Counted from the first letter of the stretch, positions 5,810 to 63,783 are shown. The stretch is DNA of 64,000 nt from a bacterium (GCA_035527835.1 DATKZS010000196.1:1058-65057); one strand, 5' to 3'. The notes: generated by a model from the letters alone, not told the origin. Program-made: numbers and translations.

Positions 5810-5912
5810 GTAAGGATGAGGGATGAAGGATGAAACAAGGATGCCCGGTGCTCAGGGGTTCATTCCCGAGCTTTCATCCTTCACCCTTCACACTTTCATA
5901 CTTTCAAACTCC
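5810..5912. repeat. heptamer-arm hairpin (AAGGATG)n, terminator-like, 3' of gene 5261-5806
   Basis: AAGGATGAGGGATGAAGGATGAAA ... TTTCATCCTTCACCCTTCACACTTTC. Confidence 0.6.
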
Positions 5913-5963
5913 CGGATGACTCCCGCCCTTGGCCCGCCCCGGGGCAGGCCGTATAATTGAAGA

Positions 5964-8246
5964 ATGCCCGACCTTGCTCCATCCGCGTCCTGCCTGCCCC
6001 AGGCCATGGCCCTGCTGGCCGCGGCCTGGGCCGCGGCAAGACTCCTCATCCTGCACGCTCCCGTGATCTTTTTCGCGCTGGCCGCCGGCCGGGCCCTGTA
6101 TCGCGGCGGCGAGCGGCTCCCGGTCTTGGTCTCGGCGATGGTGATCTATTTCCTCGCCCTCTGCCTACCGTTATGGGCGGGGCCCAGGCTGTCGTTCTGG
6201 TGGCTCGCGGCGTGGGCGGCGGCGTACGGAGTAATGGGAATCGCCATCAGGCTATGGGAGGCGCGCAAGGCGGATGCGCGGGCTGAAAACCCGGGCCGCT
6301 CCGGAATCGCGCCCGACCCGGCTACGCAGGGCGGCGTCATCACCATCGCGCTCCTTTTGACCGCCCTGCTCGCCACCGGGATTTTTGACCCGCGCTTCGA
6401 CCACGACCCCCTCACCTATCAGCTTTACTTCGCGGCCACGTGGCTCCATGACGGCCGCGTCTCCATCGTGCCCACTCCCTTCGGCGACCCGTCCCAGGCC
6501 TACGGCCCCGCCCTGGCCTCGATGTATTACCTCTGGCTCATGGCGCCCATCGGCAACGACATGCTGGCGCAAGCCGGGCAGTGGCCGTTTTTACTGCTCA
6601 CGGTCCTGGCCGCGTGCGGACTGGCCGATGAGCTCGGCGCCGGCGAGCGCCGCGCCTTTCTCGCCGGGCTCTTCATCTTCATGGCGCCGCTCACGGTTTA
6701 CGAGGGCCGGAGCGCGCTCTCCGACCTCGCAACGGCCGGCTTTTTCGCATCGTCCTTGTATTTCCTGGTCCGCGCCGGCCGCGTGCGCAAGCCCGTGGAC
6801 CTGGCGCTCGGGCTCCTGGCCGCGGGGCTGATGGCCGGCTGCAAGTTCACGGCCGCGCCCCTCCTCGTCCTCCTCCTGCCGCTCCTCGGTTTCGCGGGCT
6901 TGCGCGCTCGCGGCCGAGGGGCCTGGGCCGCGTGGCTTGCCGGTATCGCCGCCGCCATGGCCGGCGGCGGAATCTGGTGCGCCCGCAACTGGCTCATCGC
7001 CGGCAACCCCTTTTTCCCCATCAGCATCTCCGTCATGGGCCATGAAATTTTCCCCGGGCTTTACGGCCGCGAGCAGATGTTAAGCTGGGTGTTCCACCAA
7101 GAGGGAATGCGGGCCTGGCGGGACGTGATGAGCGCTAATTTCTCGCCGCTGCTGCTGGGCCTCGGCGCGCTGGCGCTCATTGGTCTCGTGGCGATGCGGG
7201 CCGGGATGGCGCGTCCCGCCATCATCTACATGGCGCTCCTGCCGCTCCTTATTGACCGCATGTACTGGGAGGTGATGCCCTTTCAGGTGGACCGCTTCTG
7301 GATCCCCGCCGTCCCGGTCCTGGCCGCGGCCCTGGCCGCCGCAAGCTCATGGCGCTGGCCCCTGGCCGTTGCCGCCCTGGCCCTGGCCTACGCCGGCCTG
7401 TTCATCTTCCCGGTTCCCGAGATTCCAGGCCCCGATACCCTGCTCTGGATCAAGATCGCCCTGCCCTTCTCAGCCGCCGCGGGCTTGGCCCTGGCCTTTG
7501 CTTACCGCCGGCTTTGCCAAGCGGCCTCGAAAAAAAGCCCGGCCACAACGCCATCCGCCTGGCCGCATCCGCCCGCGTTGTCCATTGTGGCCGCGGCATT
7601 TTTCTTTCTCATCACCGCGGCGGGCCTCCGCTCCTACGAGTACCGCCGCGCGGCCGCGCTCTCCGGCCTGAAGTCCGGCCCGGGCTGGCTCGCGCTGCCC
7701 TGCTCCGCCGGCGGCGCCACCGTGGCCTACACCGGCGCCAATATGCCCTACCCGCTCCTGGGACCCCGGCTCCAAAACCGCGTGGAGTACGTGTCGCCCT
7801 CCGGCCGCGTCATGCCCCTGGACCACGAGCTGTTCCGCGACATGGGCCGCCAGGCCCCGCGCTTCCAGACCCCGGAGCCCATGCTCTCCGGACTCTCCCT
7901 GGCTAAGGAGCAATGGGCGCACGGCGTGGCCGCCTCCGGCGCCGATTACCTGTTCGTGACGAGGCTCAGCCGCAACGCGCTGCTCAACACCGCCCACGAC
8001 CCGGACGGCTGGCCCCTCGAAGACTCCTGGGCCCGATCCGCGCCCCGCGCCTTCCCGCCAGTGTACCAGGACCGGTTCACCAGGATTTACCAGGTGGACC
8101 GATCCGCTCCACTCTCCCTTCCCGACAAGAAAACCGACCGCCCCGCCGACGCCATCGCCGCCTGTTCCTCAGCCGCCAACCCCGACTGCCCCCGATTCTT
8201 CCCCCTCGCCCCCATGGCCCTCCGCTCCATCCAAACCAGCCCATGA
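5964..8246 (+). CDS. polytopic membrane protein, GT-C-type glycosyltransferase-like (PMT/ArnT-like) with C-terminal soluble domain
   Basis: 760 aa. At least 10 predicted TM helices in the first 520 aa. Loop motif FDHDPLTYQLYF resembles the DE-Y loop of the GT39/GT83 families. Confidence 0.55.
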   Translation: MPDLAPSASCLPQAMALLAAAWAAARLLILHAPVIFFALAAGRALYRGGERLPVLVSAMVIYFLALCLPLWAGPRLSFWWLAAWAAAYGVMGIAIRLWEARKADARAENPGRSGIAPDPATQGGVITIALLLTALLATGIFDPRFDHDPLTYQLYFAATWLHDGRVSIVPTPFGDPSQAYGPALASMYYLWLMAPIGNDMLAQAGQWPFLLLTVLAACGLADELGAGERRAFLAGLFIFMAPLTVYEGRSALSDLATAGFFASSLYFLVRAGRVRKPVDLALGLLAAGLMAGCKFTAAPLLVLLLPLLGFAGLRARGRGAWAAWLAGIAAAMAGGGIWCARNWLIAGNPFFPISISVMGHEIFPGLYGREQMLSWVFHQEGMRAWRDVMSANFSPLLLGLGALALIGLVAMRAGMARPAIIYMALLPLLIDRMYWEVMPFQVDRFWIPAVPVLAAALAAASSWRWPLAVAALALAYAGLFIFPVPEIPGPDTLLWIKIALPFSAAAGLALAFAYRRLCQAASKKSPATTPSAWPHPPALSIVAAAFFFLITAAGLRSYEYRRAAALSGLKSGPGWLALPCSAGGATVAYTGANMPYPLLGPRLQNRVEYVSPSGRVMPLDHELFRDMGRQAPRFQTPEPMLSGLSLAKEQWAHGVAASGADYLFVTRLSRNALLNTAHDPDGWPLEDSWARSAPRAFPPVYQDRFTRIYQVDRSAPLSLPDKKTDRPADAIAACSSAANPDCPRFFPLAPMALRSIQTSP

Positions 8247-11035: not shown

Positions 11036-11527
11036 CGCCGTGTCCACTGCCGTCAAATCCAGGCCACGGAGCCCGTTTCCCCAAAAATTTTTACCCTGTT
11101 TCGTCACGGTGTCCAACAAAATCCGCGGCTTGCCCGCCAGGGCCCCATTTTCTGTGGCCCAAGGGCTGGGACGCGGAGGCACTTTCGCGGCCCAATTCCC
11201 AGGCCCCTGTGGCCTGCGGTCCGGGCCGCAAAAACGCCTCCGTGTCCTAACCATCAGGCCACCCGCGTCCTATAATCCAGGCCACGAAATGACGCACCGA
11301 AACCGGCCCTTAAATTTACTTTTTTGACCCAACCATTCATTTTTCGTAGAGCCATTCTCACCTCGGAAAAATAGTAGCAAGTAGCCAGTAGCCGGTAGCC
11401 AGGGCTCAAACCCCAAACCTCAAACCCCAAACCTCCCTCATGCCCCCCTACTATTCGCAAACTGGTCGCACCGAAAAGGAAAAAAAGTAATGGTCCAAGG
11501 AAAGGGAGTAGCCAGCAGCCAGGGAGA

Positions 11528-11625
11528 AGATAAAAAAGGCTTGAGGTTTGAGGTGTGAGGTTTGAGATTGGAGGCTTAAGATCGGGATGTTAACCACAAA
11601 CCCCAAACCCCAAACCTCAAACCTT
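11528..11625. repeat. octamer-repeat hairpin
   Basis: GGCTTGAGGTTTGAGGTGTGAGGTTTGAG ... AACCACAAACCCCAAACCCCAAACCTCAAACC. Confidence 0.7.
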
Positions 11626-11713
11626 TCTTCCCTCCTTCGTGCCCTTGGTGTCTTCGTGGTTCAATTCTCTTTCCTCAAACCTCAAACCCCAAACCTCAAA
11701 CCTCATTTTCCCC

Positions 11714-11741
11714 TTGACATCGAACCATGAAGGGATATACT
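11714..11741 (+). promoter_or_regulatory. promoter module copy P1 (TTGACA-N16-TATACT)
   Basis: Module CCCTTGACATCGAACCATGAAGGGATATACTGGACCGAGAATCGCGGGAAGG... No obvious downstream gene. Confidence 0.45.
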
Positions 11742-11934
11742 GGACCGAGAATCGCGGGAAGGAGAAGGAAAGGCCGGATGGTGAGCGGAAGAAAATATGA
11801 ACCACAAAGGCACAAAGAACACAAAGAAAAAAACATTCTTCCCCCTTCGTGCCCTTTGTGCCTTGGTGGTTAAATTCTTTCTCTTCCCTGGCTACCGGCT
11901 ACTTGCTACTGGCTACTTTTTCCCCACTTTTTGC

Positions 11935-11962: not shown

Positions 11963-12279
11963 GGCAGAGAGATTACGGGAGGGGATGGACAGGAAAGGCA
12001 GGATGGGGAATGGGACCGGAAAGCGGCGGGCGCGGGGAAGAATGATGAGGCTAATGTTAAATGTTAAGACCTGACCCCAATCACTTCGTGGTTCAATTCT
12101 CTTTCCTCAAACCTCAAACCTCAAACCTTTCTTCCCCCCTTCGTGCCCTTGGTGTCTTCGTGGTTCAATTCTCTTTCAACAAACCCCCAACCTTTCCTCC
12201 CGGGATATTGATGTCCCCGATCCCGTCCAACCCTTGATACCACAGGGTATCATGGTTGCGGATCATGGGACCATCGTCT

Positions 12280-13057: not shown

Positions 13058-13360
13058 ATGACGATCAAGGAGATTCAAGATAAGATCAAGGCCGGCAGCC
13101 ACCGCTATTCGGACCATGCGGTGAAAAGAATGATTAAAAGGTCAATTGAGGACCATGAGGTTGAGCAGGCTGTTTTAACGGGAGAGATCATAGAAGAGTA
13201 CCCCCGCGATAAGTATTCTCCCAGCTGCCTGGTTTTCGGAACCACGGACAAGGGGAGGCCCTTGCACGTCCAGGTTTCATTTCCGCCCCAAGTTGTTATA
13301 ATAACCGTATATGAGCCGGATCAAGATGAATGGACGGATTATCGGGTCAGGAGGAGGTGA
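13058..13360 (+). CDS. DUF4258-family putative toxin
   Basis: Roughly 100-aa protein with a (S)DHAVKRM motif typical of DUF4258. ATG at 13058. The track start at 13016 is a TTG lying inside the promoter -35. Confidence 0.7.
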   Translation: MTIKEIQDKIKAGSHRYSDHAVKRMIKRSIEDHEVEQAVLTGEIIEEYPRDKYSPSCLVFGTTDKGRPLHVQVSFPPQVVIITVYEPDQDEWTDYRVRRR

Positions 13361-13366
13361 AGCAAC

Positions 13367-13609
13367 ATGAAATGCGTATTCTGCGGCGGCCAAACCAAAA
13401 GCCAAAAAGTGACCTTTGTTGATGACGAGCAAGGCAAATACCTGGCGGTCGAGAACGTACCCGCCCAGGTCTGCACCAGGTGCGGAGAAAAAACCTATGA
13501 CCCCGAAACCACCAGGCTCCTCCTCGACTACGCCCGCAACCGCCGCCACCCCGCCAAAACCTTTAACATGCCCGTCTTCGACTTCGAAAAACCCGGCGAC
13601 AGGCCATGA
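13367..13609 (+). CDS. YgiT-type zinc-finger (MqsA-like) putative antitoxin
   Basis: MKCVFCGG...CTRCGE zinc ribbon of the TIGR03831/YgiT type. Sits 6 nt downstream of the DUF4258 gene. Confidence 0.7.
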   Translation: MKCVFCGGQTKSQKVTFVDDEQGKYLAVENVPAQVCTRCGEKTYDPETTRLLLDYARNRRHPAKTFNMPVFDFEKPGDRP

Positions 13610-13635: not shown

Positions 13636-13800
13636 CAGTAGCCAGGGAAAAGCTTAAGACTTGAGGCTTGGGGCTTGAGGCTTGAACCACAAACCCCAAA
13701 CCTCAAACCACAGACCTTCCTTTCTTCCCTTCGTGCCTTCGTGGTTCAATTCCCCCTCTTCAACCACAAACCCCAAACCTCAAACCACAAACCTCATTTT
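13636..13800. repeat. octamer-repeat tracts (CTTGAGG/AAACCACAAACC) in the island
   Basis: Visible period-8 tandem arrays. Short ORFs in the track translate them as KPQTSNL-type peptides. Confidence 0.7.
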
Positions 13801-13804
13801 ATGC

Positions 13805-13832
13805 TTGACATCGAACCAGGAAGGGATATACT
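13805..13832 (+). promoter_or_regulatory. promoter module copy P4 (TTGACA-N16-TATACT)
   Basis: Short form of the module, nearly identical to P1 over about 100 nt. Confidence 0.45.
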
Positions 13833-14046
13833 GGACCGAGAATCGCGGGAAGGGATGGACGGGAAAGACGGGATGGGGAGCGGAAGAAAATATGAACCAC
13901 CATGCCACCAAGATCACGAAGAACAATAAATCATCCTTCTTCCCTTCGTTCCCTTGGACTTCGACGAGCTCAGTCGAGTCGTGCCTTCGTGGTTCAATTC
14001 TCTTTCTTCCAACCCCAAACCTCAAACCACAAACCTCATTTTTCCC

Positions 14047-14074
14047 TTGACATTGAACCCGGAAGGGATATACT
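14047..14074 (+). promoter_or_regulatory. promoter module copy P5 (TTGACA-N16-TATACT) upstream of the AT-rich orphan gene
   Basis: Near-consensus hexamers, followed by a purine-rich leader and then gene 14295. Confidence 0.55.
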
Positions 14075-14294
14075 GGCGGAGAAATTACGGGAGGGAATGG
14101 ACGGGAAAGGCGGGATGGGGAACGGGACCGGAAAGGGGAGCGCGGGGAGAAGAATGAGAAGGATAATGTTAAATGTTAAGACCTGATCCCAATCCCATGC
14201 CAATCCCCATGCCAATCCCCACCACCAATCCCCACCAACAGCCCCTTGAGACCAGAAGCCGCTTTTTCCAAATATAATTAGAGAGGGTAGGAAA

Positions 14295-15497
14295 ATGATG
14301 GCAAAGACTTACTCACCTACAGACATTTTTTTTGATCCATTAGTTGATAGAGATTATTATTACACCATCCTTCCTCTTCTTCCGTTACTATATGATCATA
14401 TTTATATTTATTATCCGAGTGACAATTGGGCCAAGGTTACAAATTACCTTTCTCCGACGACACGTATTAGCTACATTCAAAATCTGAGACATTGGATTAG
14501 CAAAGGAGTAATTATACCAGTCTTAAAAGGTGAATATCCATTGAAAGATGACATAAGAAAAAAGAGATCTGAAATGGATGGGCCTTCCGAAGAGTTTAAA
14601 AATGTTCTGAAAAAATATAGAAAGGACTATCAAGAATCTTTAATAACTCTTGATGTACAATCAACGCTAAGAGGGTATGATGAAGCTAGAAAACTAATTC
14701 AGGAAATTGGGAACGAAGAACAAATCATTAATATGATTAAGCTAGACCTTAATGAAGCTATTCCCGACCTTTTTTATTATTATGCCGGCGGACCAAGAGC
14801 AACCAGTTCTAAATTGCTCCTAGAGATAATCAGTGCATATAAAAATGACGATTGGATTAGAAAAGATAACGAGCTTGGAGAATATTTGCTTCCAAGCACT
14901 GCTGCATACCAATATCATGCCATTACAGATCTTGGTGAAAAAAAGAGAATAGAAGATATATATCATAATACTATTATTGTAAGAGCAGTTGATATTCTTG
15001 ATGAGAAACGACTCAGACGAGATATTTGTGAATGGCCTGAAAAAGATAATATTGAAACATGGCGTGAGTTGGGTCTTCACAGAATATTGAGAGTGTTCTT
15101 ACACTCACAGGCAATTTCAAATAATCCAGATGTACAAGCAAATGAACTAGAATACACAAGCATAGAGCTTGGCAATAGATTAACTAAACTTCGATCACAA
15201 CTTCCAGGTGAATTGGCATCTCTTTTAGTTGACAAAGGATTGTTATCGCAAATTATTATTTGCCTTACTGCGTCACTAGGCATTGTAATTGGTGATGCAA
15301 CATCAACAATTATTGGAGGCTTGGTAACTCTCTGTGTGGGCAATATAGGAAGCAAAGCTATTTTATTCAGCCTAAAGAGGATAAAATGGGATAAATTCAT
15401 TGATGCTATTGAAGATGTTTTAGGCTCCAAGTCAAATAGAACGTTGGAGAGCATTGCACTTGCCTTTGGAGATGTTATAGTCTTAGGAAGAGAGTAG
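14295..15497 (+). CDS. AT-rich orphan protein of unknown family; soluble 300-aa N-terminal region plus two C-terminal TM helices
   Basis: 400-aa uninterrupted ORF whose DNA is strikingly AT-rich relative to everything around it. Shine-Dalgarno GAGGG is 9 nt upstream. C-terminal hydrophobic segments LLSQIIICLTASLGIVIG and IIGGLVTLCVGNIG. Confidence 0.7.
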   Translation: MMAKTYSPTDIFFDPLVDRDYYYTILPLLPLLYDHIYIYYPSDNWAKVTNYLSPTTRISYIQNLRHWISKGVIIPVLKGEYPLKDDIRKKRSEMDGPSEEFKNVLKKYRKDYQESLITLDVQSTLRGYDEARKLIQEIGNEEQIINMIKLDLNEAIPDLFYYYAGGPRATSSKLLLEIISAYKNDDWIRKDNELGEYLLPSTAAYQYHAITDLGEKKRIEDIYHNTIIVRAVDILDEKRLRRDICEWPEKDNIETWRELGLHRILRVFLHSQAISNNPDVQANELEYTSIELGNRLTKLRSQLPGELASLLVDKGLLSQIIICLTASLGIVIGDATSTIIGGLVTLCVGNIGSKAILFSLKRIKWDKFIDAIEDVLGSKSNRTLESIALAFGDVIVLGRE

Positions 15498-15618
15498 AAA
15501 GAAATTATTTATGTTCATCCGGTTAAAGAGTACTTTTGCTGATGAAGATGAAGCAGTCTCATCTTAAAATATTCATTATCACGATATCCATAAGCCTGTC
15601 TTTTCAGTGGGGATTGGG

Positions 15619-15712
15619 GTCATCTATAAAAGTCCCAGTCAAGACAAATCTCTCTTTTCCTGAAGACAAATTTTCTTCATCTGGGAAGGGCTCCCCCCTC
15701 GCCATCGCCGCT
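15619..15712 (+). repeat. X module of the composite 3' block (copy 1)
   Basis: TCATCTATAAAAGTCCCAGTCAAGACAAATCT...CTGGGAAGGGCTCCCCCCTCGCCATCGCCGCTG. Second copy at 17991-18085. Confidence 0.75.
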
Positions 15713-15820
15713 GTGCGGGATCGGGATCGGGGGTCAGGTCTCGACATTAGACATTTGTTTACGTATTCAGGGTATGTTTAATCAACCCTTACCGGGTTGG
15801 GCGGTGGTGATGGGATTGTG

Positions 15821-15880
15821 TCCCAGGGTAGGCCGAAGACGGCCAACCCTGGGCTATTTTATGTTTGCCCTTTCAGGGAG
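15821..15880 (+). repeat. REP-like element, copy 1 (partial: central and right hairpins only)
   Basis: TCCCAGGGTAGGCCGAAGACGGCCAACCCTGGGCTATTTTATGTTTGCCCTTTCAGGG. Confidence 0.75.
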
Positions 15881-15980
15881 TAACAATAATGCCGCGGCCA
15901 GGGGATGCGAATTGTGTGGGTGGGGGTCAGACCCTTGTTTGACTGTTTAACGGGGCGGAATTTTTCAGCCGTCTTTATCT

Positions 15981-16080
15981 CGCCCTTTCAGGGCTGAAAA
16001 GGATATTTGGGGCGGCGATATCCCAGGGTAGGCCGGGGACGGCCAACCCTGGGCTATTTTATGTTTGCCCTTTAAGGGCG
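15981..16080 (+). repeat. REP-like triple-hairpin element, copy 2 (full)
   Basis: CGCCCTTTCAGGGC ... CCCAGGGTAGGCC-loop-GGCCAACCCTGGG ... GCCCTTTMAGGGCG. Lies 3' of gene 14295-15497. Confidence 0.8.
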
Positions 16081-16139
16081 TAACAATAATGCCGCGGCCA
16101 GGGGATGCGAATCGGGAGAGGTTGTGGCGGGCATCAAAG

Positions 16140-16345
16140 AAAGGTTTGTGGTTTGAGGTTTGTGGTTTGTGGTTGAAGAAAGGAGATTGAACCACGAAGG
16201 CACGAAGGTAGGAAAAGAGGTTTGTGGTTTGAGGTTTGTGGTTTGTGGTTTAATAGCCAAACCTCAGACCTCAGACCTCAAGCCTCACACCTCAAACCTC
16301 AATCCTCGCGCCCGGACCTCAAACCCCAAACCTCACACCTCAAAC
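16140..16345. repeat. octamer-repeat tract pair (GGTTTGWGG arms then CCTCAAACC arms)
   Basis: Tandem 8-mers on one strand followed by their complement. Part of composite block I. Confidence 0.75.
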
Positions 16346-16440
16346 CTCATCTCCCTTGATTCATGATGCTTGATCGGGCATAGTTGGGCCATGTGGAGAA
16401 CAGGTTTGTGGTTTGGGGTTTGCGGTTTGTGGTTGAATAA

Positions 16441-17970
16441 ATGAAGATTCGGGATCAGGGCCGGGAATTGGAACGACAAACCACAAACGACAAACTTCGC
16501 GTTGGCCGGGGAGGTGCGGGGATGAAGGAACGGAGATTATGCGTTTTCATCAGCGGCGTGATTGTGGGAGCGGCTTTAGGCGTTGGGCTGGGGTGTCTTC
16601 GTCTGAAGAGCGTGGAGGCGGTGGTTCGGGAGCCGGAGGTCCCCGGGGAGTCACGGCTTGCCTATACCCCGCCTCCGGAGCCGAAGTTTTCCGCGGAGTT
16701 TGCGGCCAAGTACATGCCGGTGCTGCTGAGCATGATACAGCCTCAAATCGAAAAGGTGACGGATGATATTTACGTTGCCATGGGATACGCCATGGGCAAC
16801 GTGACCATGGTGATCACTGACGAGGGCCTGGTGATCATTGACACGACGGAGAGCGAGGACTCGGCGCGGAGGATCATGGCGGACTTCCGCAAGATCACGG
16901 AGAAGCCGGTGCGCTATATCATCTACACCCATTTTCATCCGGACCATAACCAGGGGACCCGGGCTTTTTATTCGGAGGGGGTCGAGATTATCGCGACCAG
17001 GGAATTTTTGAACTGGATCCACGGCGCCAATCCCGGACTGGGCGACCAACATTTTCGGCGCGTTCTGGACATACTGGGAGGGGCCGCGGAGCCGGAGTAT
17101 GCCTTCTCCATGCCTTTTTCCAGCCCCTACCTGAGCGCGGGAAAGGCGCCCGAGGCCATGATGCCGACCATTACCTTTGACGAGCAGTATTCTTTCAGCC
17201 TGGGCGGCAAGCGGTTCGATCTTTTCCACACGCGGGGGGAGACCGAAGACCATTTGGCGGTCTGGATGCCCGAGGAGCGGGCCTTGCACGTCGGAGACCT
17301 TTATTATCATTCCTTCCCCAACCTGGCGGGCATCATGCTGGAGGCCCGGCCGGTCCGCGGCTGGATGGCGTCGCTGTCGCGCTTCATCGCGCTTGGGCCG
17401 GAGTACCTCATCCTCGGCCACACCAAACCTCTTAAAGGCCAAAGCCATATCCAGGAGCACCTGGAGAACTATCTGGCCGCCATCCAGTACGTGCACGATG
17501 AGACTCTCCGATACATCAACAACGGCAAAAGCGTCGAAGAGGCGGTGGCCGGGATCAATCTTCCCGACAGCCTTGCCCGGCTGCCGTATCTGCAGGGGCT
17601 TTACGGCAGGGTGGACTGGTCGGTCCGGGACATCTACCACGCTTATGCCGGGTGGTACGACGGCTGGGGCGCCGGGCTCAATCCCCTGCCCGGGAAGTTC
17701 CGGGCCCGGGAGATCGTCGCGCTGGCCGGAGGAGCCGATAAAATCCTTTCCCGCGCCATCGCGCTCCAAAAGAACGGTGAATATCAGCTCTCCGCGGAAC
17801 TGTGCGACGTCGTCATCGCGGCCAACCCCCAAGACAAGCTGGCCCACACCGTCATGGCCTACGACATGCAATACCTCGCCTTCAGCTCCGACAACCTGCT
17901 CTGCATCGGCGCCTATCTGTCGGCGTACTCCATGCACATGAAGGCCGCAAAAACGGGCGCGGGAACGTGA
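16441..17970 (+). CDS. MBL-fold metallo-hydrolase, alkyl/aryl-sulfatase (SdsA1/BDS1)-like, N-terminal membrane anchor
   Basis: THFHPDH zinc motif, IIDT, and a downstream dimerisation-like region. The start may be the internal MKERRLCVF at 16522. Confidence 0.75.
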   Translation: MKIRDQGRELERQTTNDKLRVGRGGAGMKERRLCVFISGVIVGAALGVGLGCLRLKSVEAVVREPEVPGESRLAYTPPPEPKFSAEFAAKYMPVLLSMIQPQIEKVTDDIYVAMGYAMGNVTMVITDEGLVIIDTTESEDSARRIMADFRKITEKPVRYIIYTHFHPDHNQGTRAFYSEGVEIIATREFLNWIHGANPGLGDQHFRRVLDILGGAAEPEYAFSMPFSSPYLSAGKAPEAMMPTITFDEQYSFSLGGKRFDLFHTRGETEDHLAVWMPEERALHVGDLYYHSFPNLAGIMLEARPVRGWMASLSRFIALGPEYLILGHTKPLKGQSHIQEHLENYLAAIQYVHDETLRYINNGKSVEEAVAGINLPDSLARLPYLQGLYGRVDWSVRDIYHAYAGWYDGWGAGLNPLPGKFRAREIVALAGGADKILSRAIALQKNGEYQLSAELCDVVIAANPQDKLAHTVMAYDMQYLAFSSDNLLCIGAYLSAYSMHMKAAKTGAGT

Positions 17971-17990
17971 ATCAGGGATCGGGAATCGGG

Positions 17991-18085
17991 ATCATCTATA
18001 AAAGTCCCAGTCAAGACAAATCTTTCTTTTCCTGAAGACAAATTTTCTTCGTCTGGGAAGGGCTCCCCCCTCGCCATCGCCGCTG
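17991..18085 (+). repeat. X module of the composite 3' block (copy 2)
   Basis: About 95% identical to 15619-15712. Confidence 0.75.
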
Positions 18086-18230
18086 AAGCTTGGCGGCCCC
18101 GAGATTTCTTGCCTCGGCCGGTTCGCGCCGGGGATGGGGGATGGGGGTCAGACCCTTGTTTGACGGGGGATGGGGGTCAGACCCTTGTTTGACTGTTTAA
18201 CGGGGCGGAATTTTTCAGCCGTCTTTGTTT

Positions 18231-18330
18231 CGCCCTTTCAGGGCTGAAAAGGATATTGGGGGCGGCGATATCCCAGGGTAGGCCGCAGACGTCCAACCCT
18301 GGGCTATCTTATTTTTGCCCTTTCAGGGCG
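18231..18330 (+). repeat. REP-like triple-hairpin element, copy 3
   Basis: Near-identical to 15981-16080. Lies 3' of gene 16441-17970. Confidence 0.8.
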
Positions 18331-18546
18331 GAAGCAGGATAGCCCGCATAGCTTGCTATGGGGGTGGCCGGGGCCACGGGATGCGATTGCGGAGTCATTA
18401 TGGCGGGCATCAAAGAAAGGTTTGTGGTTTGAGGTTTGTGGTTTGTGGTTAAATACTCAAACTTCAGAGTGGGACAGCCCACATAGCGAGCTATGTGGGG
18501 TATCCGGTGGAGGGAATTTTTTTCGATGATGCGGCGGCGGTTCGGC

Positions 18547-18629
18547 CGTCCCGCCGGGACTTGATGGTTTTTTTCCGCCTGGTCCCCAGGAAAGAATTCC
18601 TGGGCTAATTTCAAGCCGTCCCGCCGGGA
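18547..18629. repeat. GTCCC-CGGGAC palindromic element, copy 1
   Basis: GTCCCGCCGGGAC ... CCCAGGAAAGAATTCCTGGG ... GTCCCGCCGGGAC. Confidence 0.7.
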
Positions 18630-18738
18630 CTAAAGGCCTCAAGACGGAAGGAGTAGCGGGTAGCGCGCAGCCAGGGAATACGAAGCTCCAAACCACAAAC
18701 CTCAAACCCCAAACCTCAAACCTCAACGCCTGCTGGTC

Positions 18739-18766
18739 TTGACAATGGAATTGATGCATCTATAAT
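18739..18766 (+). promoter_or_regulatory. consensus sigma70 promoter of the antitoxin-RelE operon (TTGACA-N16-TATAAT)
   Basis: Perfect -35 and -10 hexamers, 55 nt upstream of ATG 18821. Confidence 0.75.
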
Positions 18767-18820: not shown

Positions 18821-19024
18821 ATGACCAATAGCGATGCCACGGCCGAGGTTTTTATCACGGCGCTGAAAGCCTTGCCCAAGACCGAGCGCGACGCGGTCCT
18901 GGTGCGCATCGCCCGGGACAAGGAATTCGCCCGCGACCTCCTCGACCTCGCCGTCATCTCCTCCCGCGGCCACGAACCCTCCCGTCCCTTCCGCGAATAC
19001 CTGGCGGCCAAAAGAAAAAAATGA
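18821..19024 (+). CDS. putative type II antitoxin (partner of RelE/ParE)
   Basis: 67 aa. Overlaps the downstream toxin by 4 nt (ATGA). Preceded by a consensus promoter and a GGAGG Shine-Dalgarno. Confidence 0.55.
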   Translation: MTNSDATAEVFITALKALPKTERDAVLVRIARDKEFARDLLDLAVISSRGHEPSRPFREYLAAKRKK

Positions 19025-19275
19025 ACGCCAAGCGCGCCTACGCCGTCAGCATCAAGCGCTCGGCGGAAAAGGAAATGGACCGCCTGCCCGCGGACATCTT
19101 CGACCGCATCGCCTCCGCAATCCTTGACCTCGAAACCAATCCCCGCCCTCCCGGATGTAAAAAGCTCCGGGGCATCGAAGAATACCGCCTCCGGGTCGGG
19201 CCGTATCGAGTCCTCTATACCATTGACGATCCCGGGAAAAAGGTATTCATCATATCGGTGGGCCATCGCCGGTAA
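19021..19275 (+). CDS. RelE/ParE-family toxin
   Basis: 84 aa. YRVLYTID...KVFIISVGHRR C-terminus characteristic of RelE/ParE. Confidence 0.8.
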   Translation: MNAKRAYAVSIKRSAEKEMDRLPADIFDRIASAILDLETNPRPPGCKKLRGIEEYRLRVGPYRVLYTIDDPGKKVFIISVGHRR

Positions 19276-21493: not shown

Positions 21494-21580
21494 CAGACAG
21501 GATGAACAGGATCAACAGGATATTGGGAAGAGGCCATTTGCTTTTTTTCTCATCATCCTGTTAATCCTGTTAATCCTGTC
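21494..21580. repeat. AGGAT-nonamer palindrome, copy 2 (between trkH and trkA, upstream of the trkA start)
   Basis: GACAGGATGAACAGGATCAACAGGAT ... ATCCTGTTAATCCTGTTAATCCTGTC. Confidence 0.75.
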
Positions 21581-23029: not shown

Positions 23030-23160
23030 GGGGAGTGGGGCTTGAGGCCTGGGGCTTGGGGCTTGGGGCGTGAGGCCTGGGGCTTGGGGCGTGGGGCCTG
23101 GGGCTTGGGGCGTGAGGCCTGGGGCCTGGGGCTTGGGGCGTGAGGCGTGAGGCAAGAGCG
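23030..23160. repeat. GC-rich variant octamer tandem repeat (GGGGCKTG/AGGCCTGG)n, about 16 units
   Basis: Direct tandem array immediately upstream of the trkH 5' end. Confidence 0.8.
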
Positions 23161-23202: not shown

Positions 23203-23302
23203 AGCCCTGAAAGGGCAATAATAAGATAGCCCAGGGTTGGCCGTCCTCGGCCTACCCTGGGATATCGGCGTCCATAATATCCTTTTCAGCCCTGAAGGGG
23301 CG
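23203..23302 (-). repeat. REP-like triple-hairpin element, copy 4 (reverse orientation, 3' of the FmdE gene)
   Basis: Reverse complement matches the 15981-16080 copy over about 100 nt. Confidence 0.8.
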
Positions 23303-23431
23303 TAATAAAAACGGGCAATGGCATCTGAGATCAAACAAGGGAAGGCTTATTAATTCCGAAAAACTATAATGTTGCAGGCACGCGGCCCAGGTTTTCAACC
23401 TGTGCCCTCCCCAAACCTCAAACCCCAAACC

Positions 23432-25959: not shown

Positions 25960-26328
25960 TCAGAGCTTTGCAGCCAAATTCCTTTCTCGGTGCCTTGTCT
26001 CTTCAACCACCACGATGGTCCCCTTCTCCAGGGCGGACGTGGAATCCTTCAGGACTTTGCGGAGTCGCTCGATCACGTGTTCACTCCTGCAGTCATGAAG
26101 CCTGAAAATGACGACACTCACGAGACGACCACCAGAGAGGGAGATTATCTCCCCGAAATCGAGGTCAAAGGTCAGCAGGACCCTTTTTTCGGAAAAGGCC
26201 TTCTCGAATATGGCGCCGTTGGGGAGACGCTGCAGGTTTTCATCCCGGAGGTGGACAGCGTCGTGCCCTTCGGCGCGGAGATACTGCATCACGCGTTGTG
26301 ACACGCCCATGTCGGCAAGGAATCGCAT
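25960..26328 (-). CDS. DUF5615-family PIN-like putative toxin
   Basis: MRFLADMGVS...LLTFDLDFGE pattern. Lies immediately downstream of a DUF433 gene. Confidence 0.7.
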   Translation of the reverse strand: MRFLADMGVSQRVMQYLRAEGHDAVHLRDENLQRLPNGAIFEKAFSEKRVLLTFDLDFGEIISLSGGRLVSVVIFRLHDCRSEHVIERLRKVLKDSTSALEKGTIVVVEETRHRERNLAAKL

Positions 26329-26334
26329 CCGTCC

Positions 26335-26556
26335 CTACCCGGAATGAACTTCTTCCTGAGCGAGCCAGGCCGCGTATTCCAGGGACTGCTGGATGTCCTC
26401 CGGCTCCAAGTCGGGATAGTCGTCAAGGATCTCCCGTGGCGTTGCGCCGTGGGCGATCTGGCCCACGATCACTGAGACCGGGATCCTCATGCCCCGGATG
26501 CAGGCCCGGCCGCCCATGATCCCGGTATCAAAGGTTATGCGCTCGAATGTCTCCAT
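26335..26556 (-). CDS. DUF433-family putative antitoxin
   Basis: GGRACIRGMRIPV signature of DUF433. 73 aa. Confidence 0.75.
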   Translation of the reverse strand: METFERITFDTGIMGGRACIRGMRIPVSVIVGQIAHGATPREILDDYPDLEPEDIQQSLEYAAWLAQEEVHSG

Positions 26557-27849: not shown

Positions 27850-28093
27850 TGGTGTTACACCTCGATCACCCGGCCACCGGCCGGAGGCCGCCTCCCACAT
27901 TCCCCGCGGCCAGATGTAACATATCAGGGCGGGGCGGGGATAATCAAGAAGGGAGCAGGCAAGGCGGGTTGCGCAGTGCAGCCCCGGGAGGGGCGGGCGA
28001 AAGTAGCCCAGCAATTCATTGCTGGGTGGGCCGGCAGCACCGATGCCCCGAGTCCCGGAGGGACGACCGAGTCTTGCTCAACTCATGATCGTC

Positions 28094-28177
28094 CGTCCCT
28101 ACGGGACTTGGCGGTTTTTTCCCGCCCAGTTCCCAGGAATAAATTCCCGGACTACTCTCGAAATGTCCCTCCGGGAC
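28094..28177. repeat. GTCCC-CGGGAC palindromic element, copy 2
   Basis: GTCCCTACGGGAC ... CCCAGGAATAAATTCCCGG ... GTCCCTCCGGGAC. Confidence 0.7.
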
Positions 28178-28270
28178 TACAATACTTCAAGGCCAGAAAG
28201 TTCTGAAATTCAGTAACACTTGAATCATGGCGATGGTTAATCATTGAAGAGATCAAACGACGGATTCCGC

Positions 28271-32376: not shown

Positions 32377-32477
32377 GCGCCCTGAAAGGGCAATAATAAG
32401 ATAGCCCGGGGTTGGCCGTCTTCGGCCTACCCTGGGTTATCGGCGACAATAATATCCTTTTCAGCCCTGAAGGGGCG
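32377..32477 (-). repeat. REP-like triple-hairpin element, copy 5 (reverse orientation, 3' of the OYE gene)
   Basis: Reverse complement matches the other copies. Confidence 0.8.
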
Positions 32478-32528
32478 TAATCAAAGCGGGCAATGGTATC
32501 TGAGATGCGACATGATCAGGCTTAATAA

Positions 32529-36069: not shown

Positions 36070-36170
36070 TAATATGGGCGCGGATCGCGTAGAGCGTAGA
36101 GCGCGGGGCGAATGGCGTAAATCAAATCAGCGCCAAAGTAACGGTCTTTAACGCCCTGCGCCCTTCGCTC
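36070..36170. repeat. heptamer-arm hairpin (GCGTAGA)n in the divergent promoter region between the K+ channel and GNAT genes
   Basis: GCGTAGAGCGTAGAGCG ... CGCTCTACGCTCTACGCTTTACGC. Confidence 0.65.
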
Positions 36171-36248
36171 TACGCTCTACGCTTTACGCTCTGCTCTTGA
36201 CCCGCCGCCCCCGCGTCTATATCCTGAATTCAGGCTTGGGGTGAACGG

Positions 36249-41941: not shown

Positions 41942-41984
41942 GATAAGTATTTAGTATCTAGTATATAGTATTTAGCGGGGCGAG

Positions 41985-45285: not shown

Positions 45286-45441
45286 CAGCAACAGGACCGC
45301 AAGACCGGTGAATAATATTACTGCCGAGAGCGATGAATGACCGTGGCAGGTGGAGCCCGACACTCCTGTCGGGCGGTGTCTGCTTGGTTGAGATGGTCCG
45401 GGGACAGGAGTGTCCCCGCCACCACTGTGGCAATCTCGGCC

Positions 45442-45524
45442 GTCCCTGCCGGGACTTAAGGGTTTCTTATGTCCACATTCCCAGGAATAAATTCCCGGGC
45501 TATTCTCGGCTGTCCCTCCGGGAC
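45442..45524. repeat. GTCCC-CGGGAC palindromic element, copy 3 (between batB and batC)
   Basis: GTCCCTGCCGGGAC ... CCCAGGAATAAATTCCCGGG ... GTCCCTCCGGGAC. Confidence 0.7.
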
Positions 45525-45569
45525 AAAAAATGTCCGAACCCCGGGTTAATTTATTTCCGTTGCATACCC

Positions 45570-51560: not shown

Positions 51561-51651
51561 TGGCCCGCCCCCTTTGAGAAAGAGTATTTAGTATCTAGCA
51601 TTTAGTATTTAGCGCATTAACGTTCAAGAATGACCGCATCGGTGTTCATCC

Positions 51652-63457: not shown

Positions 63458-63783
63458 GTGATCCCCTTGAATGACCATTCGGTCATAAATTGACCATTTA
63501 TTCATTATACGAACATAATAGTCATTTTATTTACTCTTTAGTCATTTGTCAAGCCGAAAAGTTCACCGAATTTTACAATAAGCAGGGAGGTTCTCAGAAA
63601 AAAGGATCGAGGATCGAGGAGCGAGGATCGAGGGGGTCCGCAAAATATCCTCGATTCTCGCTTCTCGCTCCTCGCTTCTTTTCATAATTTCCGGGCGCCG
63701 CCTCGCGACATGAGCGACTGCGCCCGAGAGTGGATCATTCTCGAGTCCGCGAGCAGGTGCTCTTAAGCCGGAAGAACCAATTT

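Follow-up and report, generated by a model that had tools for sequence, protein, structure and literature searches.

In a 64,000-nt stretch of DNA from a Deltaproteobacteria-like metagenome-assembled genome (MAG; GCA_035527835.1, DATKZS010000196.1:1058-65057; the whole stretch that was analysed is referred to as the window), a gene coding for a metallo-beta-lactamase (MBL)-fold sulfatase-like protein is flanked by two directly repeated blocks with the same order of modules (block I, about 15619-16437; block II, about 17991-18730). Both blocks are most likely mosaics, formed as mobile and dispersed intergenic repeats accumulated 3' of a gene, and not dedicated cassette elements. The blocks are composed of a relic of an insertion sequence (IS), a motif resembling an IS target, a dispersed hairpin repeat, a copied gene flank, heptamer arrays and a promoter.

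Comparison of the window with itself revealed two collinear stretches common to the blocks, and not merely short repeats in shuffled order. The first stretch, which contains the module designated X (15609-15713 and 17981-18085), extends over 105 nt with 95% identity (BLAST E-value 3e-43), the second (15918-16177 and 18168-18453) over 260 and 286 nt, respectively, with 84% overall identity (E-value 4e-86). In this second unit, the first 166 nt are 93% and the last 87 nt 89% identical, and the two copies differ by 26 nt in length. The initial annotation had described directly repeated composite blocks of about 0.8 kb around the gene; the blocks, their positions and their common module order were confirmed, but only about half of each block (approximately 370 of 800 nt) was collinear, the rest being insertions or sequence in which the likeness is confined to short tandem arrays. 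In both blocks, X is followed by the GGGGGTCAG motif, hairpins, the sequence GCCG..GGCCA..GGGATGCGA...GGCGGGCATCAAAGAAAGG, (GGTTTGT)n, (CAAACCT)n and a promoter; the terminal repeats, previously taken for octamers, have a period of 7. Block I also contains an internal duplication with a period of 200 nt (15821-15912 and 16021-16112, 96% identity). X is present exactly twice in the window and GGGGGTCAGACCCTTGTTTGAC exactly three times, in each case within the blocks, where no occurrence would be expected by chance (for X, as calculated for its core). When the blocks were searched for elsewhere, X and the 260-nt unit were found to be confined to the two adjacent spacers in approximately 74.5 kb, of which 10.5 kb lie beyond the window and yielded no further copy of either, while the modules other than X and the GGGGGTCAG motif recur in other parts of the window. 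The blocks are not an assembly artefact, since independent assemblies of several samples reproduced both of them at 99.6-100% identity. Several metagenome contigs (L001, L004, L005, L014-L016 and L019) end in or beside the blocks, for example at window positions 16121, 16110, 16484 and approximately 18740, and the assembly of this lineage is limited by repeats.

Judged by its sequence, X is the end of an IS110-family element with the layout of the IS1111 type. A scan of public collections with the X core identified one unrelated MAG and six metagenome contigs. On the contigs L008, L010 and L011, X runs on into conserved sequence ending in a 343-aa protein encoded on the opposite strand, and the termini of complete ISs on L008, L010, L011, L020, L021 and L022 match X, the alignment beginning precisely at the end of the IS. 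Identity to the intact end (L011 and L020) is 96-98% for the copy in block I (X_I) and 91-93% over 137-149 nt for that in block II (X_II). The intact element has a length of 1423 nt and consists of a 69-nt left end, a gene for a 343-aa DEDD (RuvC-like) transposase and a 322-nt non-coding tail 3' of the transposase gene, of which X represents the last 94-145 nt. The transposase (intact copies on L010 and L011) contains the domains PF01548 and PF02371, scores 147.4 bits against the NCBIfam model NF033542, 'IS110 family RNA-guided transposase' (cutoff 140), and matches the IS621 and ISCro4 recombinases in the PDB. The subterminal inverted repeat CTATAAAAG is located near both IS ends, which if joined would form the promoter TTGACT-N17-TACTAT, as read from the sequences. 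The element was assigned to the IS1111 type because the long tail downstream of the gene for the transposase, the CTATAAAAG repeat and the junction promoter match the description of this type (PMC11187229). X retains the subterminal inverted repeat as well as one half, the -35 box, of the circularisation promoter; the putative guide loops described below lie outside it. The relics in the window and the sequence abutting the first of them are:

15609-15619, plus strand: G-rich run GGGGATTGGGG, a half-target abutting the IS end X_I, read from the sequence and similar to the flanks of intact IS copies.
15620-15713, minus strand: X_I, relic of the transposase-distal end (RE), IS nt 1-94, matching L011 and L020 from the IS terminus onwards; its transposase-sense strand is the minus strand of the window.
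17992-18135, minus strand: X_II, a second relic of this IS end (IS nt 1 to approximately 145), matching L011 and L020.

Only IS nt 1-94 and 1-145 are present in the window, in which no transposase was detected by tblastn. At the inner ends of X (15700-15733 and 18125-18150) there is no left-end-like sequence, so that X is not bounded on both sides by sequence resembling an IS end. X folds no better than shuffled sequence (z of approximately -1.5 on both strands), in keeping with a fragment rather than a functional RNA; on the same grounds it was rejected as a stable RNA structure. Neither strand of X has a match in Rfam, and X was not found in viral contigs. A small protein gene was likewise discarded, the 33-codon reverse-strand open reading frame (ORF) of X_I being interrupted by a stop codon in the RBG_13 copy. 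Another IS110-family transposase (26% identical) is encoded at 13795-14820 of L023, 2.3 kb downstream of a sulfatase orthologue with 82% identity.

In transposase orientation, the target consensus of the IS is AATGTYWAATGTYRAGACC-TG-ACCCC. Six complete copies and two right-end junctions share AGACC-TG-ACCCC, with a common core and no added target duplication. The target corresponds to the point at which a conserved 19-nt motif meets a heptamer run that is C-rich on this strand and G-rich on the other. Three unoccupied target sites were found in the window, one of which, on the other strand, belongs to a region starting immediately after X_I, with the site 20 nt away. In each block, the hairpin unit has the GGGGGTCAG module (GGGGG-TCA-GACCC...) as its left edge. 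This module resembles the target on the G-run/core side and departs from it on the other flank, and five G-run/TCA sites in direct orientation are distributed around the sulfatase gene. The sites and target-like motifs are:

12053-12078, plus strand: unoccupied IS target AATGTTAAATGTTAAGACC-TGA-CCCC, found by its match to the IS target.
14165-14190, plus strand: unoccupied target-like site AATGTTAAATGTTAAGACC-TGA-TCCC, directly upstream of a low-GC gene, found in the same way.
15714-15755, minus strand: G-rich heptamers followed by the unoccupied target GGGATCGGGATCGGGGG-TCA-GGTCTCGACATTAGACATT (core 15734-15736), the same sequence as that flanking the occupied sites of L011, L021 and L022.
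15922-15943, plus strand: GGGGGTCAGACCCTTGTTTGAC, an IS-target-like motif whose G-run/TCA side fits the IS guide and whose other flank departs from the consensus.
18136-18193, plus strand: two tandem 29-nt units GGGGGATGGGGGTCAGACCCTTGTTTGAC, target-like, found by tandem-repeat and motif search.

For the RNA of the IS tail, a consensus fold with two stem-loops was predicted from three sequences. The first stem-loop carries GGGGUCAG where the target is C-TG-ACCCC (L010 and L011) and GGGGACAA where it is T-TG-TCCCC (L008), and the second carries CATAGATG, matching the donor IS end. The resemblance of the tail to a seekRNA or bridge RNA, seen in three sequences including one variant, is suggestive.

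SeekRNA-guided members of the IS110 family are known for the IS1111 type (ISEc11, ISPa11 and ISKpn4), and IS621 represents the IS110 type (PMC11187229). The element described here shares with the IS1111 type the DEDD transposase, the long downstream non-coding region, the short subterminal inverted repeats, the -35 and -10 halves at opposite ends that give a promoter upon circularisation, the strict target with a shared core and no added duplication, a predicted RNA with stretches that would match target and donor, and, as for ISPa11 and ISPpu9, a preference for repeated extragenic sequence (PMC11187229). It differs in that the window contains only end fragments of 94-145 nt, the parent IS being known just from metagenome contigs, and in that the target is a junction of a 19-nt motif and a heptamer run rather than a REP (repetitive extragenic palindromic) hairpin or attC; guidance is suggested by the sequence. 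ISPpu9 of Pseudomonas putida KT2440 inserts into REP clusters, and its 3' module (ssr9, MITEPpu9) also occurs alone (PMC12288879). Similarly, X is a segment normally located 3' of an IS110-family transposase gene that also occurs solo at an IS-type target site; MITEPpu9, however, has IS-end-like boxes on both sides and its own minicircles (PMC12288879), whereas solo X has a true IS end on one side only.

The hairpins, which had been described as REP-like, belong to a dispersed intergenic family related to Acido-Lenti-1 of Rfam (RF01687). With a gathering threshold of 37 bits (cmscan), the model was passed elsewhere in the window (45480-45525, 41.5 bits, and 27980-28026, 41.3 bits), and the block copies scored 35.5, 26.8 and 19.3 bits, all below the threshold; the two hairpins and the conserved U-rich linker of the family were present in the cmscan alignment, a multiple alignment and the predicted folds. 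Of a long-stem form of approximately 110 nt there are five copies: block I has two, block II has one, and the others are at 23204-23315 and 32378-32489. A short-stem form occurs in four copies, and all nine are intergenic. Every long-stem copy (5/5) is oriented like the upstream gene, and short-stem copies are found in both orientations. Pairwise identities define two long-stem subfamilies, each with extra flanks of its own: the second copy of block I and the copy of block II (I_b/II) are 92% identical and the 23204/32378 pair 93.7%, with 86-89% in cross-comparisons. The folds are stable (z of -2.8 to -4.5), and the main GC-rich stem is followed by a U-rich tract. Two block sites were flagged as terminator-like in a simple scan, the terminator-like hits in the region showing no excess over shuffled expectation. 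From these sequence features, the hairpins may terminate or stabilise the upstream transcript. The copies within the blocks are:

15821-15912, plus strand: hairpin copy I_a (long-stem, Acido-Lenti-1-like) with GCCGCGGCCAGGGGATGCGAAT, 96% identical to 16021-16112; RF01687 19.3 bits at 15822-15866.
15969-16080, plus strand: hairpin copy I_b, the dispersed core of about 110 nt with four hairpins, 92% identical to copy II and 86-88% to 23204-23315 and 32378-32489; z = -4.5.
18219-18330, plus strand: hairpin copy II; RF01687 26.8 bits at 18272-18330, fold z = -2.8.
18542-18632, plus strand: short-stem Acido-Lenti-1-like element, similar to 28089-28179 and 45436-45528; RF01687 35.5 bits at 18585-18631.

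Acido-Lenti-1 is listed by Rfam as a small RNA (sRNA) gene of Acidobacteria and Lentisphaerae, and the only literature description found is the table of the 2010 discovery paper (Weinberg et al. 2010, PMC2864571). The copies in the blocks share with it the two hairpins and a CUAnUUU-type linker and align to the model; the long-stem form differs by a far longer first stem and two extra hairpins, the block copies are below the threshold, and the family constitutes here a multi-copy dispersed repeat with 9 copies in 64 kb. The above-threshold copies (45436-45528 and 27980-28179) lie in a Deltaproteobacteria-like MAG, beyond the phyla listed for the family; one is located in a spacer within a bat-type operon on the strand opposite to the genes, and another forms an inverted pair with a neighbouring copy. 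A coding interpretation of the match at 45480 was rejected, the first approximately 90 codons of the ORF being translated repeat DNA that is not protein-like. The REP/BIME (REPIN) elements of Enterobacteria and Pseudomonas are extragenic palindromes arranged in intergenic mosaics, often 3' of genes, and serve as landing sites of IS110-family elements. Like these, the nine copies found here are intergenic copies of a stable palindromic unit; unlike them, the units are longer, measuring about 110-260 nt and containing four hairpins, heptamer arrays are interspersed in the mosaics, and no RAYT-type transposase was seen in the approximately 74.5 kb of the genome.

The gene between the blocks codes for an MBL-fold hydrolase with an alkyl-sulfatase dimerisation domain, in agreement with its previous designation as sulfatase-like. 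Its start had been placed at 16441, which would add 27 codons traversing a heptamer hairpin; the start is most likely at 16522, which gives the 482-aa product recorded in other assemblies. The gene and the sequences 3' of it, together with a copy of its flank in block I, are:

16522-17970, plus strand: MBL-fold alkyl/aryl-sulfatase-like gene, 482 aa (PF00753 and PF14863; the exact product is on record in five contigs).
16091-16141, plus strand: GCCGCGGCCAGGGGATGCGA...GGCGGGCATCAAAGAAAGG, a copy of the sulfatase gene's ancestral 3' flank, 89% identical to 18367-18453, with a homologue 3' of the orthologue in L025.
17974-18331, plus strand: 358-nt segment with a G-rich array, X_II, the target-like repeats and hairpin module II, missing from the syntenic locus of L025 with clean break points.
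18332-18412, plus strand: ancestral 3' flank of the sulfatase gene, a hairpin CCCGCATAGCTTGCTATGGGGG followed by GCCGGGGCCACGGGATGCGA...GGCGGGCATC, 84% identical to L025 2229-2308.

The closest relative, L025, carries a sulfatase orthologue with 85% identity and is syntenic downstream (TrkA 95% identical); a 476-aa protein of L025 is 66% identical to the 486-aa protein of the window. There, the stop codon of the orthologue directly precedes 2229-2308, the equivalent of 18332-18412. L025 thus keeps 18332-18412 and lacks 17974-18331, as well as the array 18413-18476 and, at the syntenic locus, the toxin-antitoxin (ParE) pair. Upstream of the gene, the two genomes share only a promoter-like element and the last approximately 60 nt of the leader, their arrays being different. 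Since the closest relative has the sulfatase gene and not the first 358 nt of block II, the block was probably added beside a resident gene and did not move with it. Sulfatase orthologues with 82% and 69% identity are found in other neighbourhoods with short spacers, and no block modules were detected near the orthologues in L023 and L026. In the population itself, the gene order was constant on every contig with the exact flanking proteins (seven samples).

The last modules of each block are heptamer arrays, of a kind found throughout the intergenic DNA of this genome. Tandem Repeats Finder and a simple detector identified 39 arrays with a period of 7 (approximately 4-5 units each), 35 of which are located in the non-coding 19% of the window; periods of 5 and 6 showed no comparable intergenic bias. 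Unit sequences are many, and inverted pairs are common. Further examples are found at 11373-11917, 13652-14038, 23030-23153, 36151-36197, 41944-41975, 51583-51612 and 63603-63679, and related contigs contain similar heptamer hairpins ((GATTTTA)n in L012; directly after the sulfatase stop codon in L023). The arrays and promoter-like elements around the sulfatase gene are:

16142-16349, plus strand: (GGTTTGT)n at 16143-16174 and 16217-16251, a CACGAAGG-type spacer and (CAAACCT)13 at 16258-16349, found by repeat search; an inverted copy of the composites 13657-13794 and 11537-11705.
16356-16384, plus strand: promoter-like TTGATT-N17-CATAGT of the sulfatase gene, read from the sequence, under the threshold of the consensus scan and of putative function; position and spacing are kept in L025 as TTGACA-N17-AATAGT.
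16403-16495, plus strand: heptamer-array hairpin in the sulfatase 5' leader (z = -5.0), with the 3' arm and the Shine-Dalgarno region conserved in L025.
18419-18450, plus strand: (GGTTTGT)n array, the inverted partner of 18689-18726, with no counterpart in L025.
18689-18766, plus strand: (CAAACCT)n array adjoining the consensus promoter TTGACA-N16-TATAAT (18739-18766) of the antitoxin/ParE pair at 18821-19275, found by repeat and promoter scan.

C-rich arrays are located directly 5' of TTGAC-type -35 boxes in six places (11673-11721, 13762-13814, 14009-14054, 16316-16361, 18689-18744 and, on the minus strand, 23036-23010), and these adjacencies suggest a link between heptamer arrays and promoters. 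Two families of repeated promoter-plus-leader units (TTGACA-N17-TATACT) were also observed (11925-12085/14046-14190 and 11715-11880/13806-14005), one with a purine-rich leader of about 100 nt that ends in the IS target motif and the other with a CACGAAGG-type hairpin readable as a spurious MNHKGTK... ORF. The spacer between the genes for TrkA and TrkH contains an inverted pair of 9-nt tandem arrays (ACAGGATCA at 21497-21521 and ATCCTGTTA at 21555-21579). The sole differences between independent assemblies of the population were insertions and deletions (indels) in heptamer arrays (+21 nt, a multiple of 7, at 23057 in L003 and L005 and approximately +42 nt there in L004, within the array 23036-23153; a length change at 13717-13758 in L001 compared to the window), and the copy number of the arrays therefore varies within the population.

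Cyanobacterial STRR (short tandemly repeated repetitive) sequences are intergenic direct repeats of heptamers. So are the TAACTGA repeats of Beggiatoaceae (PMC4679880). The arrays described here resemble both in their short 7-nt units, the few copies of each, their restriction to intergenic regions and the many loci involved, and differ in that there are many unit sequences, typically in inverted pairs forming long stems, that copy number shifts by multiples of 7 between samples, and that C-rich arrays adjoin -35 boxes. What is more unusual in this lineage is how densely the heptamer arrays occur and how they are organised, a feature outside the finding on the blocks itself.

The order of modules common to the two blocks probably resulted from guided IS insertion combined with local copying of the 260-nt unit. 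The IS would insert at ...AGACC-TG-ACCCC..., the junction of motif and C-rich heptamer run, and such sites, or half-matches such as GGGGG-TCA-GACCC, would be offered at the left edge of hairpin units; guided insertion beside these left-edge sites would put X at the head of each block, with the G-run/TCA motif next. The ISs may then have been truncated, and a piece of approximately 260-290 nt comprising the target-like motif and hairpin module together with the 3' flank that belongs to the gene and a heptamer array would have been copied locally across the gene. Local copying is proposed because GCCG..GGCGGGCATC, the 3' flank of the sulfatase gene in both genomes (window and L025), also occurs twice in block I beside hairpin modules.

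Several observations weigh against this reading. An intact IS was found neither in the window nor in the adjoining 10.5 kb, the same samples yielded none either, and GGGGGTCAGACCC agrees with the target consensus on one flank only. The covariation of guide and target is based on a single variant IS, and the terminator function of the hairpins is deduced from sequence features. In a comparison that includes no syntenic outgroup, the 358-nt difference is explicable also as a deletion in L025. That two solo X copies belonging to different IS subtypes stop at the identical nucleotide is not accounted for by simple truncation. Finally, since X_I and X_II differ at 2 of 94 positions (97.9% identity), which equals the distance of X_I to the intact IS on L020, one duplicated X relic and two independent insertions fit equally well; substitutions derived and shared by X_I and X_II were uninformative in this respect.

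This last point leads to the alternative of a one-off segmental duplication of the whole 3' block of the sulfatase gene, for example as a tandem of gene and flank in which the upstream gene copy was lost or replaced and the blocks diverged by indels, a scenario that we regard as possible but less probable than not by a clear measure. All shared parts are similar in identity (89-98%), the shared unit spans the junction of hairpin module and GCCG..GGCGGGCATC, a sequence that in L025 is the gene's own 3' flank with no adjoining hairpin module, and in approximately 74.5 kb neither X nor the 260-nt unit was found outside these two neighbouring spacers, which likewise speaks for a shared local history. 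Two separate X events are indicated by the different positions of the IS at which X_I and X_II stop (94 and about 145), by differing left flanks and following sequences, and by an intact empty target that is present after X_I and has no equivalent in block II. Moreover, X_I is as near to the intact IS (L020) as to X_II, the parts that match are offset by unequal distances (2372, 2250 and 2276 nt), and much of each block is unrelated to the other. The pair 23204-23315/32378-32489 is equally tight (93.7%) and flanks no common gene; tight subfamily pairs can therefore arise by means other than local duplication.

The blocks could also have been kept by selection as 3'-untranslated region elements (terminators, RNA stabilisers or sRNA genes), a like function then having led to a like layout. 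The orientation of all five long-stem hairpins, their GC-rich stems followed by U-rich tracts with two block sites flagged as terminator-like, and the high stability of the folds are in line with this idea, which we nevertheless consider unlikely, and slightly more so than a duplication: X is an IS fragment with a fold like that of shuffled sequence (z of approximately -1.5), short-stem copies occur in both orientations relative to genes, the terminator-like hits are not above shuffled expectation, L025 has no module at the same gene, and a function of this kind would account for one module and not for the block.

The end points of X raise a more speculative interpretation, namely that X (IS nt 1-94) is a discrete hitch-hiking module and not debris, and that the blocks record RNA-guided shuffling of intergenic modules, possibly including the intervening gene, in an uncultured lineage. 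This is prompted by solo X copies of different IS subtypes and organisms that end at the same nucleotide and have paired direct half-targets: the solo X in the MAG RBG_13_61_14 (L006, approximately 5739) is of a different IS subtype yet ends at nt 94 like X_I (15713), and the three solo X copies are bracketed by G-run/(T/A)CA half-sites, with a G-run and (T/A)CA within 9-20 nt after each. We consider it improbable; were it true, the RNA-guided recombinase making or moving X units might bring about recombination, too, between the five direct G-run/TCA sites that surround the sulfatase gene.

A functional gene-cassette array, in which gene and 3' block would be mobile together and the block would be the recombination site, either integron-like or served in trans by an IS110-type recombinase at G-run/TCA sites, is very hard to reconcile with the data, for although same-strand accessory genes (a toxin-antitoxin pair, a gene with 38% GC, the sulfatase gene and another toxin-antitoxin pair) lie between the genes for GroEL and TrkA, each repeat-bounded, sulfatase orthologues have differing neighbourhoods in more distant relatives and five direct G-run/TCA sites surround the gene, attC-like pairs (the core sites R'', RYYYAAC, and R', GTTRRRY, inverted and separated by 50-150 nt, searched on both strands) numbered zero on either strand of the whole window, also when re-checked, no integrase, transposase or other recombinase domain was found among the window gene products, the genes carry their own promoter-like elements, L025 carries the gene at this locus and lacks the first half of block II, the neighbourhoods in L023 and L026 are devoid of any block module, and gene-content variants were absent from seven samples. 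The cassette array envisaged in the initial annotation was thus not supported. The likeness to integron cassettes is limited to same-strand genes that are each followed by a structured repeat; R''/R' core sites and an integrase are absent, the genes have promoters of their own and the sulfatase gene is resident at a syntenic locus. Of the proposed 'recombination or termination element', what can be retained is that the blocks hold relics of an RNA-guided IS, target sites and terminator-like hairpins, but no cassette system. As to a substrate for homologous recombination, direct repeats of 94-260 nt with 90-98% identity do flank the gene, but no deletion variant was seen in seven samples, and recombination between the blocks is possible but unsupported. 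Population variants that have lost the sulfatase-like gene, which had been suggested as a check, were not found in the contigs of these samples, a search of low power because assemblies tend to break inside the blocks.

Upstream of block I lies a gene for a 400-aa product (14295-15497) with 38% GC in a genome of approximately 63% GC, for which no match was found in Pfam, NCBIfam or PADLOC. It is bracketed on the left by an empty IS target and a C-rich array (14165-14237) and on the right by an inverted G-rich run and X_I, and it looks horizontally acquired. In L006 (MGQK01000099.1, Deltaproteobacteria bacterium RBG_13_61_14), a low-GC gene for a 420-aa protein (5838-7100) that matches the PADLOC candidate defence family PDC-S54 (E-value 4e-60) is located directly upstream of the solo X; no homology was detected between these two low-GC genes. 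Three toxin-antitoxin-like pairs are present within 14 kb of the window: an unassigned 100-aa ORF with a YgiT-type zinc-finger protein (13058-13609), an unassigned 67-aa ORF with ParE (18821-19275) and DUF5615 with DUF433 (25960-26556).

These findings do not overturn current understanding, as the elements belong to known kinds. For annotation, they mean that the conserved 'module' of about 100 nt that follows genes in this lineage is an IS110/IS1111-family end and not a regulatory RNA or a cassette site, and MAG assemblies of the lineage break at the blocks. Acido-Lenti-1 behaves here as a dispersed repeat with REP-like and terminator-like features, a point relevant to its listing as an sRNA. 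The study of RNA-guided ISs gains a natural target consensus, the junction of a 19-nt motif and a heptamer run, for an undescribed IS1111-type element, together with unoccupied sites and truncated solo ends that share a common end point.

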